From: Eledone cirrhosa
Lineage: Eukaryota
Length of the DNA: 64,000 bases
Reading direction: 5' to 3'
Assembly: GCA_964016885.1 (NCBI GenBank)
Contig: OZ024740.1
Location: 88,040,001-88,104,000, forward strand
In this document: positions 12,574 to 62,615 of the stretch, in pieces
Layout of the letters: each line of letters opens with the position of its first letter
Position numbering within the stretch: the stretch's first letter is position 1
Notes under the pieces: generated by a model
Told to the model about the DNA's origin: nothing
What the model saw: the letters and a program-made list of their open reading frames with translations, nothing else
Database searches by the model: none
Program-made: the position numbers and the translations under genes

Positions 12574-12647
12574 GCTGTGATATATATTTCAATGACGACA
12601 CTGGCCACACTGTTCTGTGTGCGAGTGTCGTGTCATCATCAGACAGC
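12574..12647 (-). ncRNA. Type-I hammerhead ribozyme motif
   Basis: GCTGT-CTGATGA-[TGAC..GACACT..CACAC..GTGTG..AGTGTC-GTCA]TT-GAAA-TATATA-TC-ACAGC; stem I GCTGT/ACAGC; palindromic stem III. Confidence 0.8.
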
Positions 12648-13071
12648 TTGTTACATAATAAGGTTATGTTTCCGAGGCAATCCAAATTGAATCGACATGG
12701 GAACGGATGAAGTTCGTGCTTTTGGGTTTTTCATCCGTTCCCTTGAGTACCAATTCACCCCCACCGGTCTGCGCAAGCGCATGTCCGAAGGAAGTTGACC
12801 ATTAGCCACCGCAGATTTCAACGAAATTTGCTTAGTCAGTTCACCCTCTCAGCCAAACAATGGCCCACCTATGCCCTCCAAAGTTTACTGCTACCCATCA
12901 CGACTGTGGCAGTCAGCCGAAAGCCAGAGGGGATGGGAGGGTGTTAGTTTTTATAGGTCATAATACTACCTCTCACTAAGCGTTGACAGTACGACTGACC
13001 ATCAACTCACAAGGGAAAATAAACTTAATTCTAGGTATCATGGTTTTACATTGGAAGTTATTATGTAACAA

Positions 13072-13145
13072 GCTGTCTGATAATGACACGACACTCGCAC
13101 ACAGAACAGTGTGGCCAGTGTCGTCATTCAAATATATATCACAGC
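13072..13145 (+). ncRNA. Hammerhead copy with mutated core
   Basis: Same sequence as 12574-12647 but CTGATAA (G8A) and CAAA (G12C). Confidence 0.7.
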
Positions 13146-14128
13146 ATTATTATTAAAGGACTTGAAGATCTGAAACTACTTCGCTTTTCCTTATTCGATA
13201 TTTACTCCGTCACTCCTATGTGGAAAAAGTACGTTGAGTACTTGAATTGAATTGCATCAATGTTTACCCTAATAATATATATATATATATATATATATAT
13301 ATATATATACACACATATATTTATATATATATACACATACACATGTACACATATATATATATATATATATATATTATATATGTACACACACACACATATA
13401 TATATATATATGTGTACATGTGTATGTGTATATATACATACATATATATATATATATATATATATATATATATATATATATATATATATATATATATATA
13501 TATATATGTATGTATGTTTGTATAAGCTTATTTATATGGATTAGTAATTACGATCGTCAGGTCTTGAGTTCGATTTCTGGCGGCGCGTTATGTCGTAGAA
13601 CATGAAATTTTATTTTATTTTGCTCAAGTCCACCCACCTACCACAATTAGCAACCTGTAATTATAATTTGAAGGACAATTTTTTAACAGTAATTTCTTCC
13701 TATCGTCTACTTCCAATGAAGGATTTTTGTTATCGTTGTAGTTGCTTTTGTTGTCGAACTGGAGATAAACACAAATCGAGCACAGCAAAGACGAAAACCT
13801 TTGCAGCCGTGATCCTCCTGTAATTTTGTAAATATTTCGATTCATTCCCAGACGTGTCAGTCGCCTTTCTGTAAGACGATAGAGTACGATTTGGAGGAAT
13901 TTGATTGCTATTTCTAGCAGATTATGTGACAGTGTAAATTTCCACCTCCTTGATAGTAAGAGAAACTGTTCATCTCCTCTCACACACACAAGCTGAAGTA
14001 TAAATAGACATACATATATAGCATCAAGCGAAAAAAAAATATATATCCAACACAAACCAAAATGAACGATTGAAAAGCTACTCAGCAAAACCGTACAAAA
14101 ACCGTACAAAAACTATTTAAGTAATTTC

Positions 14129-15630
14129 TTTTTTTTTTTAAAATAAATAAGATTTACGTCTGTAATATATTAAACGTATATTTTCATACTTACTGTATCC
14201 AGTCATAAGTCTTAGGACAATGGGATTGATGAGTTAATATCTGTATACAACATCTACAACGGTACGCGATGGAGCTGACCCACAGCCCCGGCGGACAGAA
14301 TGGAGAAGGCGTTTCCCCGGAGGACGGCAAGGGAGACGCGCTGGAAAATCCACTCCAACTCGCCGGGCTCACACCTGCGGCTGGCCAGCTCAGCGCCTAT
14401 GGTAGTGAGGAAGGAGGTAGCCCTGGGGCCGAGGACACCAGAAGTCTCCACTGCCAGGGGTACGACCTCAAACCTGTCGGAGAGCGACCGGTATTTGAGG
14501 AGTTTGGCCCCCTCAGCCCAACGTGCAGCAGAACCTGGGTCAGTGGCAGACTGCACCAGGTTGCGGCTGCAGAAAGGGTCGGTGCAAGTGGCATCCCAGA
14601 CGAGGGGTTTGCCACCGCTAAACGGGAAGATGGTCATGCCATCTGACTTTTTGCCGTCCCCTCGATCCAGCGTCACTGGCTCGAGCTGGGAAGGGAAGCC
14701 TGCAGCGTCCAAGCCATGCTTAATGACCTCGTTGAGGGCAGCATGGCGTGGAATGTGGCCGGCACTGTGGCGACAGGAAAGCGGGTGGAGGCCGAAAGAG
14801 TCCACGGTGGAACCACAGCGACATTGGTGTGGCTGGCAGATCCGGAGGCCGAGTATCAGGGAAACGCCGATGTGCAGGGTATGGTTGTCTGGCTGCGTTC
14901 TAGTGGAGAAGGAGGACAGAGCATGGAGCCAGGCACCACTGTGGGGTTTGGAGGCCGCATTAAAACAAGCAACGTGGTGTTGGTCGAGCTGGCGCGTGAG
15001 CCTGTCTGAGGCCAGGCTACACTGGATGGCATCCCACGTGCGTTGAGGTGACTTGACGTCAACAAGGGGAGAAGGAGGAGGGACGTCTACTGGGATAAGT
15101 CCCAGCCGGTCCCACGTCTCACAGGCGGCTTCGCGTTCTCTGAACACAGAGGGTTCTGTTGTGTTTTGAAGAACCCTGCTGACAAGGACGCGGCACGAGG
15201 TTACCGACGAAAGATACGCCGGCAAAGCTAGTGAGATCGGGTACCGGAGGCAAAGGCCGCCATACCTGACAGGTAAAGTGGCCTGTTCCCACCCTATGTC
15301 GTCAAGCTTGACGTTGCTCCCCGACTGCTGCTCGGATACAAGTATCGAGGTCAGCGAGGAGAGATGTCTGGGTGTAGCACGGAGTGCTGCGGAGTGTATA
15401 GAGGAGCTTCGGTATGGCGAAGCAGTTCCTCAGCAGAAAGAAAGCTGGGTGGCTGTCAATCAAGCCCAGTCGGCTCATGAGAGTCTAGAGTGTTGAAGCC
15501 TGGATCTGATGGTGGAGCAGATGGCCAGCGGGTGGATCGGTGAGCCGACGATGAGGACATCCTCTTTGGGGGTCACCTGAACCTGGCGGAGAATGGACCG
15601 CACGTCCAAGACGGAGGCTGCAAAGCTCAA
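14129..15630 (-). mobile_element. CRE-clade RLE non-LTR retrotransposon, 5'-truncated
   Basis: GC-rich island; ORF with HSGAWL, CRCG..HPLSC, RHAALN, DGMT..P..LVWDATC, PLAVETSG and QRVSLAVLRGNA; poly(A) tail seen as a T-run at 14129-14139. Confidence 0.88.
14254..15225 (-). pseudogene. CRE element C-terminal zinc knuckle + restriction-like endonuclease
   Basis: 323-aa ORF with CCHC, RH and D..D motifs typical of CRE. Confidence 0.85.
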
Positions 15631-60389: not shown

Positions 60390-60900
60390 AGTTTGGCGTT
60401 TTCAAACATTAGGACATTTTTACAAGTCAAAATAATCGCATCATTTGTGATTCCCGGCTGCTATATTTTAGAAAGGTACATTATTCCATCCCAGTTGATT
60501 TCTACTAGCTTCAGTGCAAAGAATTCCGTCAGTCACTGATTTAACTCGTCTTAATTTGCGAAGGTCTTTGACTGCATTGCATTGATCATTGAGAGAAAAA
60601 GGTGATAGTTTGTAGGCGAGAGCTCGGGCAAATATGGCGGGTGGTGCAGGACCATCTAATGTAGCTCCAGCAGCTTCTCATGGATCATCCTCGATGTATG
60701 CAGGCCAGCATTATCACGAAGGAGTCGAAAAGGACCGTAGTGTGGAAGAAGTCTATACTGGTGTTCGGTGGGGAGTAGCTCGAAGCCTTTACAGCTTGCG
60801 AAGCCGAAGGAAGCCTTTGCTTGCAGTTCTGGTGCACTCGCGTTATCAAACGATGACTGCTGATGCATGACAATAATGTATTGACACGAGCAATGATGCA
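60390..60900 (-). pseudogene. mariner transposase relic, C-terminal half
   Basis: LRDNAGLHT (HDNARPH-like), KLLEL..VLHHPPYLPELSPTNYHLF (YSPDLAP-like), DELNQ.LTEFFA. Confidence 0.8.
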
Positions 60901-60959
60901 TCATTTCATGTACACGTTGTTAGAATGACGACAATGTACAGACAACTGGCTGGTTGGAT

Positions 60960-61610
60960 TCTGAGAAGCTTCAGGACAGGAGACCAGAAATCATGTTGGT
61001 AATCTGAAGAACATTTATCCTCATCCGACTGGACTATTGCTCTCAGCTGTGGTCGCCTCACAGTGTCAAACTAACAGAACTCGAAGCAATCCATCGAAGC
61101 TACACCAGGAGGATTGCCTCAGTTAAGGAGATGAACTACTGAAGAGGCTGAAAGAGCTAAAGCTCTACTCCCTGGAACGTGGAACCAAGACGGGAGAGTT
61201 GCGCAGTCATATACATATGATAGAGCCTGGAAAGACTAGCACCAAACTTTGGCAATAAGAGCAGGACAAACTCTCGAACAAGACGCCTCCGCATAATGGC
61301 AAAATTCTCATCTTTTAATCTAGAAGAAGGACCAGATACCACAACAACCAGGGATTCAAAAGCCCTCGGCTTTTCAATAAGCCGGAGAAACAAACCTGTG
61401 AGATCTACATAGTGTGGATGTAGATGATTTCAAGAAGCATCTTAACATTCCACAAACCAAGATTTCAGATGAATCTACAACACGAGATGAAGTACACACA
61501 AGAGCAGGGGCGATAAACTCTCTCTTATACCAATGGCAAACCTAGGAATGTACAGTAATTATAGTGACAATGGTGGTATCTCAGGATGGGCCAAACAAGT
61601 CGGCTGGCAC
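60960..61610 (+). mobile_element. CR1-clade LINE 3' relic
   Basis: LDYCSQLWSP..LEAIHR.YTRRI..MNY..RLKELKLYSLER motifs. Confidence 0.8.
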
Positions 61611-62042
61611 GGATAAAAGAATAGGAGAGTATATTGATATATACATTCACGCACACACACACACACACACACACACACACACACACACACACACACACAC
61701 ACACACACACACACACACACACACACACACACACACACACACACACACACACACACACACACACACACATATATATATATATATATATATTTGAAAGGTG
61801 ATCCAACCTTTCAAACCAATCCCAGCTCGGCTTTGTTGCAATTTCTGAGAGTGGCTTTCACCACAACATACTTCTCTTTCTCCCCCTCCTCCCTTCTCCC
61901 TATCCTCCCCCAACTACTACCAGCCAAAACCCAAAAATCAAAACTGGTACTTCTCTTAGCCAACTAACAGAGAAAGAAGGACAAACACGGACAGAGATAT
62001 GAACTCCCATTTCAAAATATGTATATACAAATTAATAATTAT

Positions 62043-62615
62043 CTAGTTGATAAGAAAATTAGTATGTTGTGATTCAATATGGAGCTTTGTAGTTATGTAA
62101 GAGGTATTTCGAGACGCGTGGACAACGTGTGAAGATTTTCATTTCTCGTGTTTAGGCAATCACTATTGCATAATCTCTTTACAATATTTATTCGTTCATC
62201 AATACATAGTCCACACGACGGATTTCCCCTTGTGTATGGCTTGGACTTAGTGATGGCTTTCCATTGAATGGAGTAGTCTATAACTTGAGTCCCTGAGGGA
62301 CCATACGTGGCTCGCGAGTTTCGTGGATGAACGTCTGTCCGGGTACCTAAAGGTACATAACTACAAAGCTCCGGATTGAATCACAACATCCTAATTTTCT
62401 TATCAACTAGTAACTTTCGGACTTTCGCAGTTATCTCCCTTACACCTCTTACACGCTTTTTAGTATTGCCTGTGTGAGGTGAAGGTTTCTGCGCATGCGC
62501 GTTCGTACGGTTGTCCTTCCTGTTCCGTATAACCATGTCCATTGCGAGCTGAGGATCCGCTAAGGTGAAACAATTGTTCTCGGTATGGTGAACTAACTGT
62601 TGTGTAAACACTTCT
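62043..62615 (+). mobile_element. Non-coding pLTR-like element with an inverted segment and a 3' hammerhead
   Basis: 62043-62099 is the reverse complement of 62354-62410; ends in (TA)n. Confidence 0.7.
62532..62589 (+). ncRNA. Type-I hammerhead, canonical core
   Basis: ACCAT..CGAG-CTGAGGA-T-CC(GCTAA)GG-T-GAAA-CAATTG-TT-CTCG..ATGGT. Confidence 0.85.

Follow-up and report, generated by a model that had tools for sequence, protein, structure and literature searches.

Penelope-like elements and their non-coding tandem derivatives that reside in TA microsatellites and carry hammerhead ribozymes are a known kind of genetic system. Here we compare this system with a 64,000-nucleotide (nt) stretch of the 3.0-Gb genome of the octopus Eledone cirrhosa (C1:88040001-88104000; hereafter, the window), whose hammerhead motifs are designated by their first position in it. 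For Hydra-1_Obim of Octopus bimaculoides, a hammerhead and a (TA)n preference are listed in the supplement of Craig et al. 2021 (PMC8557442; statements on this and the other sources cited refer to the parts of them that were available). The Hydra clade, which includes this element, is defined in the same paper by a CxCX5C endonuclease without CCHH, and the role of the hammerhead in Penelope-like elements is termed unclear. The Hydra-type families of the window share with this clade a GIY-YIG endonuclease at the C terminus, with CxCX5C and no CCHH, insertion into (TA)n, a hammerhead in the pseudo-long terminal repeat (pLTR) whose short stem II has U-U at its base, copies in inverted orientation, and tails on one side only. 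By eye, however, the hammerhead of Hydra-1_Obim differs from every motif in the window. Moreover, whereas the available text of PMC8557442 contains one octopus Hydra family and no genome-wide hammerhead count, this genome encodes many Hydra-type endonucleases and includes one family with a fixed U4A core.

Other described hammerheads resemble those of the window in different respects. The motifs reported in PMC4209133 also have an unpaired base after A9, a short stem I and a short or palindromic stem III, occur on opposite strands 100-700 bp apart, and, in Schistosoma, include the U3-A8 core. Like the non-coding families described here, animal non-LTR retrozymes (Cervera and de la Pena 2020, PMC7229834; Li, Clavereau and Pollet 2026, 10.64898/2026.07.22.740005) consist of tandem units that are non-coding, low in GC and equipped with a single type-I hammerhead, are dispersed as monomers to multimers, and co-occur with Penelope-like elements. 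They differ in unit length (150-450 nt in PMC7229834 and up to 972 nt in 10.64898/2026.07.22.740005, compared to 485-1304 nt here), and the retrozymes identified in this genome sequence are distinguished by a long stem II and strong TA targeting.

Our analysis indicates that the motifs of the window are, most likely, type-I hammerheads located in the terminal repeats of several Penelope-like families and in non-coding tandem derivatives of such elements, that is, retrozymes, inserted in (TA)n tracts. The reality of the hammerhead motifs is confirmed. A strict descriptor (type-I hammerhead with a perfect core) detected four in the window (47375, 47765, 49655 and, on the minus strand, 51823), whereas 60 dinucleotide shuffles gave 0.13 on average. 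A scored descriptor, which was tuned to accept the core variants of the window itself and favors a short or palindromic stem III, added 12574 (minus strand) and 39120, for a total of six (mean 0.06, maximum 1, in 50 shuffles). Applied to 40 evenly spaced 10-kb stretches of the three largest chromosomes, C1-C3 (1.24 Gb; score of at least 13; 10 shuffles), it yielded 38 matches versus 0-1 in the shuffles, as anticipated by the initial annotation, which had predicted a motif frequency above shuffled background. This comparison, as well as the recurrence of families and the core conservation described below, refutes the explanation that a short motif was matched by chance because the DNA is AT-rich, to which we give practically no credence, even though a simple descriptor permitting one core mismatch did not exceed background (4 in the window versus 1.08 in 12 shuffles) and about 3 of the 38 sampled matches appear spurious by eye.

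All eight main motifs of the initial annotation were recovered at their positions, including three that the descriptors missed and that are unchanged in other copies, namely, 51360 (bulged stem II), 62545 (2-bp stem II) and 52199 (weak stem I). The type-I core (CUGANGA...GAAA...UH, with three stems, closed via stem I) is present in 47375, 47765, 49655, 51823 and 62545, as well as in 52199, with its weak stem I, and 12574, with a 2-nt insert; 51360 and 39120 have variant cores, and the core is not preserved in 18932/17878, 13072 and 38074. A search with the Rfam hammerhead models, a check proposed initially, matched none of these motifs, either at the gathering threshold or at E<=5 on 46600-52600. 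A repeat search of the window was dominated by microsatellites.

About half of the motifs in the window belong to pLTRs of protein-coding Penelope-like elements, with open reading frames (ORFs) for a reverse transcriptase (RT) and a GIY-YIG endonuclease:

48316-49857, plus strand: 5'-truncated autonomous-type Penelope-like element; ORF at 48316-49524 with the RT end, a CX4CX2C linker, and GIY-YIG with CCHH
49655-49697, plus strand: pLTR hammerhead of this element, followed by (TA)n
52199-52240, plus strand: pLTR hammerhead whose stem I is weak, located in a Penelope 3' end (about 51898-52497) from a subfamily related to 49655
36983-38190, plus strand: decayed Penelope RT/GIY-YIG remnant of the lineage of 49655 and 52199, with a decayed pLTR hammerhead at 38074-38116
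62545-62582, plus strand: pLTR hammerhead followed by (TA)n, in a Hydra-clade Penelope-like fragment (about 62043-62614) with an inversion
39120-39170, plus strand: hammerhead with a U4A core, in the pLTR of a Hydra-clade Penelope-like element (fragment at about 38620-39186)
17701-19100, plus strand: 5'-truncated Penelope-like element with an inverted pLTR, a GIY-YIG ORF remnant (18057-18494, PF01541), a 3' untranslated region, a pLTR and (TA)n
18932-18984, plus strand: hammerhead-like motif of this element, with an inverted twin at about 17861-17913; the core fails in all copies seen

The suspected link to Penelope is directly observed: hammerhead-bearing pLTRs adjoin RT+GIY-YIG ORFs, and locus L041 is a full-length 49655-type copy that consists of a pLTR, a 1173-codon frame, a second pLTR, an ORF-start tail and (TA)n, with a hammerhead in both pLTRs. 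This and other loci show the organization of endonuclease-containing (EN+) Penelope-like elements, with a single RT and C-terminal GIY-YIG ORF between pLTRs, partial tandems and inversions. The protein of the 49655 family retrieved 43,568 first-look candidates (this and the other candidate numbers from family searches are not copy numbers), and the best match of its ORF is a protein of Octopus vulgaris (69% identity; next best, 49%). An ORF precedes the 52199-type motif in a related locus, L055. As judged by motif, the 49655/52199 lineage shares the CX2-5CxxC linker and CCHH with the Neptune/Nematis type. Elsewhere in the genome, copies of 62545 and 39120 (528 candidates) are located behind ORFs with the Hydra-clade signature, a CxCX5C linker without CCHH, so that both families, assessed from the C-terminal part of the ORF, combine this signature with a hammerhead and a (TA)n target. 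The proteins of the 49655, 62545 and 39120 families had no Pfam match, and their domains were read by motif. By contrast, PF01541 and PF00078 were matched in the 18932 family (linker CX4CX6C; 1699 candidates), in which 18932/17878 are inverted pLTRs flanking the GIY-YIG remnant. The description of the motif-bearing elements as non-coding therefore does not apply to 49655, 52199, 38074, 62545, 39120 and 18932, all of which are 3' ends of RT+GIY-YIG elements. Nor are all the families mutually unrelated, as had been concluded from their differing stem sequences: 49655, 52199 and 38074 belong to a single Penelope lineage, in which their pLTR motifs are homologous. In addition, a decayed remnant of a Hydra-type Penelope ORF is located at 59155-59561 (minus strand).

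The second group of motifs belongs to four families of non-coding tandem retrozymes (47375, 47765, 51360 and 12574), with units of 485-1304 nt and one type-I hammerhead per unit:

46694-47682, plus strand: partial tandem comprising 1.4 copies of a 707-nt unit, with a (TA)n tract on either side; hammerhead at 47375-47501, predicted cleavage after 47497
47698-48315, plus strand: partial tandem of a 485-nt unit; hammerhead at 47765-47846, predicted cleavage after 47842
50950-51519, plus strand: copy of a young 591-nt tandem family with a 5' inversion; hammerhead at 51360-51447 with a U3-A8 core and a palindromic stem III
12322-13274, minus strand: element with a 5' inversion between two (TA)n tracts, carrying the motifs 12574 and 13072
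12574-12647, minus strand: hammerhead of a 1304-nt tandem family, with a palindromic stem III and an intact core
13072-13145, plus strand: 12574 motif in inverted orientation; carries two changes in the core and is likely dead

The 707-, 485-, 591- and 1304-nt units contain no ORF longer than 79 codons and have no tblastn match to four Penelope proteins. Family searches with these units returned 1928 (47375), 2584 (47765), 524 (51360) and 2420 (12574) candidates, and arrays of the 591-nt unit are 99% identical. Tandem, partial-tandem and inverted arrangements are all directly observed among the copies. In the window, the second copy of the 47765 unit is cut short by the Penelope fragment that follows it. 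An abundant SINE-like (short interspersed nuclear element) repeat, with about 10 pieces in the window, has entered the 12574 element's pLTR (insertion at about 12371-12554, within the interval 12355-12570), duplicating 16 nt of its target.

Three further hammerhead-related features of the window differ in anatomy:

51708-51897, minus strand: short element with one Hydra-style hammerhead (51823-51861) and a fixed 5' end
50366-50469, plus strand: decayed hammerhead inside a palindromic insertion (50080-50679); relatives have a U4C core
55709-55920, plus strand: hammerhead reduced to its 3' half, from an abundant family flanked by TA; most copies inspected break off within stem II; more pieces at 3432-3554 and 4522-4659

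The decayed motif and the 3'-half hammerheads had been overlooked initially. The 51823 family (296 candidates) often occurs head-to-head, and no direct tandem was found among the matches listed, so that it does not qualify as a retrozyme. Of the 25 copies inspected in the 55709 family (locus L053 and 31 other matches), most have a hammerhead that is cut within stem II; longer copies at L053 point to a further U3-A8 core. The insertions at 42703-42988, 50080-50679 and 55709-55920 are TA-flanked palindromes made by 5' inversion; speculatively, their transcripts could form long hairpins and become substrates for RNA editing or silencing.

The proposed homing to (TA)n is borne out. For 33 of the 38 sampled matches, a (TA)5 or longer tract is present no more than 250 nt downstream; the same holds for 21% of random positions (30% in stretches that contain matches) and for 23% of 181 CTGANGA sites that are not hammerheads. 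In 22 matches, TA is also found within 250 nt on the 5' side. Complete loci of the four non-coding families (52 in total, including the window copies and a few overlapping loci) all have TA at one end at least, and 33 have it at both ends (11 of 12, 7 of 14, 12 of 14 and 3 of 12 by family). In the window itself, the next TA tract is 2011 nt away from the 47765 motif, owing to the Penelope fragment behind it; elsewhere, copies terminate about 70 nt past the motif. The 3' ends at TA are directly seen to be fixed, mostly at two sites per family, whereas the 5' ends are variable. Furthermore, 11 of the 13 common 3' ends share 2-7 nt of their own sequence, in phase, with the TA tract, an overlap that would fit reverse transcription primed by microhomology into pre-existing TA tracts.

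Tandem families could also be local satellites recombined from stranded pLTRs, the TA link then reflecting a TA-rich genome. Indeed, (TA)n tracts comprise 5.9% of the sampled DNA, and local amplification of pLTRs has been proposed (10.64898/2026.07.22.740005). We nevertheless consider this origin very unlikely, given that the TA proximity far exceeds the null expectation, that copies with 98-99% identity are dispersed over many chromosomes, and that the 3' ends are fixed, the 5' ends variable and 5' inversions present. In head-to-head insertions (for example, L105, L099, L060 and L135), the short 3' end is found at one end and the long one at the other; a one-sided tail comparable to these inverted pairs has been described (PMC8557442). 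We make no claim for a shared promoter, given that an NRF1-like palindrome lies upstream of only 3 of the 38 sampled hammerheads, with a background of 0.8%.

Core variants are family-wide traits and not mutated single copies. U3-A8 is found in every copy of the 51360 family inspected, and contigs from three organisms list no difference at 5% or more across its motif. All 39 homologous copies of the 39120 family have A4, and the relatives of the 50366 motif have C4 in 6 copies from 3 loci, one with an additional change (the U4C family has 1413 candidates). Throughout the 12574 family, two extra bases precede G12, and the predicted fold pulls G8 and A9 into stem II; in the 18932 family, the core is invalid in all 18 copies inspected. 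Thus, of the motifs taken initially for mutated copies, 13072 and 38074 (decayed) are such, whereas 39120 and 18932/17878 are not. The U3-A8 pair is known (PMC4209133; PMC3088659), and U4C is described as weak in vitro but viable in a viroid (PMC3088659); a natural U4A has no occurrence in the available text of PMC3088659 and was not found in our literature search.

Core conservation, taken as a sign of selection, is directly observed in 238 copies from 10 clusters gathered by homology. The 11 invariant core positions show 30 deviations among 2618 (1.1%), versus 4.6% at N7, 8.4% at H17 and 5.2% at non-core positions. This supports, without proving, function because the copies are related and BLAST favors conserved stretches. 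In the 17 copies of the 47765 family, 94.4% of the alignment cells pair, and one stem II pair varies (GC in 10, UA in 4 and AU in 2 copies).

The scheme that we regard as probable combines these features. Insertion into (TA)n would be carried out, most likely, by the Penelope RT-endonuclease: the GIY-YIG endonuclease would nick the tract, and the nicked strand, paired to a UA-rich RNA segment of 2-7 nt that occupies a fixed site 15-230 nt downstream of the hammerhead, would prime reverse transcription. Cleavage by the ribozymes, many of them acting as dimers formed via palindromic stem III, is predicted to reduce multimeric transcripts to single units. Released monomers could be ligated to circles, and copying round a circle or along a multimer would generate insertions longer than one unit. 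Most single hammerheads would be dead-on-arrival 3' ends left by 5' truncation, which would account for the hammerhead numbers. No RNA dataset is listed as containing the 591-nt unit, which was found in contigs of four runs of unrecorded kind from three organisms. In three of these runs, a joint steps back 591 nt; genomic tandems explain this joint, which is therefore no evidence for circles or expression. The summed contig depth over the 591-nt unit (L059:1600-2190) is about 10^5 in run X2, again of unrecorded kind, versus about 8 in X1 and X6.

Several observations weigh against this scheme. The 3' ends of the elements fail to match the predicted cleavage sites. In the 51823 family, a single hammerhead is present, the 5' end is fixed about 37 nt before the core, and both sides of the cleavage site are retained; this anatomy, including the lack of direct tandems, argues for an uncleaved linear template. 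Families with U4A, U4C and failed cores nonetheless comprise 528, 1413 and 1699 candidates, respectively. These observations are the reason to consider an alternative under which the elements are equally Penelope-mobilized and TA-targeted, with the hammerhead fold used by the RT chiefly as a signal for recognition or positioning, or being a passenger, and uncleaved linear RNAs produced from a pLTR promoter serving as templates. In the same vein, Naiads spread without canonical hammerheads (PMC8557442), and cleavage was not observed for 8 of the 9 dimers of Xenopus retrozymes (10.64898/2026.07.22.740005). Also unfavorable to the preferred scheme, no autonomous partner was found for any of the four non-coding families in the comparison with four Penelope proteins; the kinship of the copies makes the conservation counts non-independent; monomer folding produced the hammerhead shape in few motifs, with z < -2 in 2 of 12 only, so that most motifs are not distinguished from shuffles by folding energy; and stem covariation, which had been put forward as a test, is weak (in the one alignment tested, that of the 47765 family, 2 of 21 pairs change on both sides, which 30 of 500 shuffles equal). 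On the other hand, the variable positions N7 and H17 are those that are free for catalysis, U3-A8 retains the 3-8 pair, and dispersed arrays of at least 3-4 near-identical units fit copying of a circle or multimer. On balance, we deem the signal or passenger alternative improbable, albeit worthy of attention, and retain ribozyme processing as the preferred reading.

Hammerheads are abundant across C1-C3. Bootstrapping of the sample gives 23-54 matches per 400 kb, equivalent to 58-135 per Mb and to an estimated 0.7-1.7 x 10^5 for the three chromosomes together. With six matches per 64 kb, the window equals the C1-C3 average, which rules out the dense local cluster suggested initially and is consistent with the genome-wide system proposed alongside it. 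Six stretches of smaller chromosomes (60 kb) yielded no matches, and the top family-search matches are mostly on C1-C4 (for example, 30 of 40 for the 47375 family and 31 of 40 for the 39120 family); hence, the density appears to be lower on small chromosomes, and the genome total can be estimated only as of the order of 10^5. The descriptor also undercounts because it misses real families (51360, 62545 at the stricter setting, and U4C). Across all collected loci, 229 distinct matches form 43 clusters, 20 of which have at least two members, and some singletons are possibly false. The stem III insert is a perfect palindrome in the representatives of 21 of the 43 clusters, in agreement with the palindromic stems pointed out initially, although the score rewards this feature. 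For comparison, PMC4209133 reports about 2,000-9,000 motifs per genome, and the axolotl has 126,247 (PMC7229834) in 28 Gb (10.64898/2026.07.22.740005), a density about 20-fold lower than that on C1-C3.

The view that this system is unannotated holds in part. Its kind has been published (PMC4209133, PMC7229834, PMC8557442, 10.64898/2026.07.22.740005), and Penelope-like elements are annotated in O. vulgaris, where they account for 6.83% of the genome and 190 families (PMC13282606 supplement). However, no ribozyme term occurs in that supplement or in the available text of the study, the words octopus and cephalopod do not occur in the available text of PMC7229834, and no mollusc was sampled in 10.64898/2026.07.22.740005, as far as its available text goes. 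We found no genome-wide report of octopus hammerheads in the open literature; subscription papers and repeat databases may hold one. What appears to be new, then, is the scale, the presence of about 40 families, the U4A, U4C and U3-A8 cores fixed in high-copy families, and the 2-7 nt TA microhomology at the 3' ends.

Further mobile elements in the window are of other types. An intact-looking 1204-amino acid (aa) ORF with endonuclease, RT and zf-RVT domains at 29513-33127 (plus strand) likely belongs to an L1/Tx1-type long interspersed nuclear element, with decayed relatives at about 1067-1663, 8600-11640 and 34939-36807. A 391-aa frame at 14254-15429 (minus strand) has no Pfam match; it presumably resembles the restriction-like endonuclease that forms the C-terminal part of a non-LTR element. 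A cluster of direct and inverted non-LTR fragments at 19903-27390 (RT at 22027-23007) adjoins (TAA)n tracts, which suggests that a second group of retroelements is associated with microsatellites. A DDE_1 transposase remnant is located at 6945-8139 (plus strand).

It is tempting, if rather doubtful at present, to go further and propose that this is the largest and most diverse animal hammerhead repertoire yet described (at least 10^5 motifs, more than 40 families), that the U4A, U4C and U3-A8 families still cleave and give rise to abundant circular RNAs, and that UA-microhomology priming into (TA)n, repeatedly nested, is one of the main engines of the octopus microsatellite landscape. Regardless, dozens of young families coexist in this genome, autonomous and non-coding, with canonical, variant and failed cores, in tandem and strictly single, which allows a direct test of whether spread requires cleavage. 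These families also provide natural core variants for ribozyme biochemistry, and demonstrate that Rfam misses all these motifs. As judged from sequence, octopuses may harbor a large, previously unrecognized pool of ribozyme-made RNAs.

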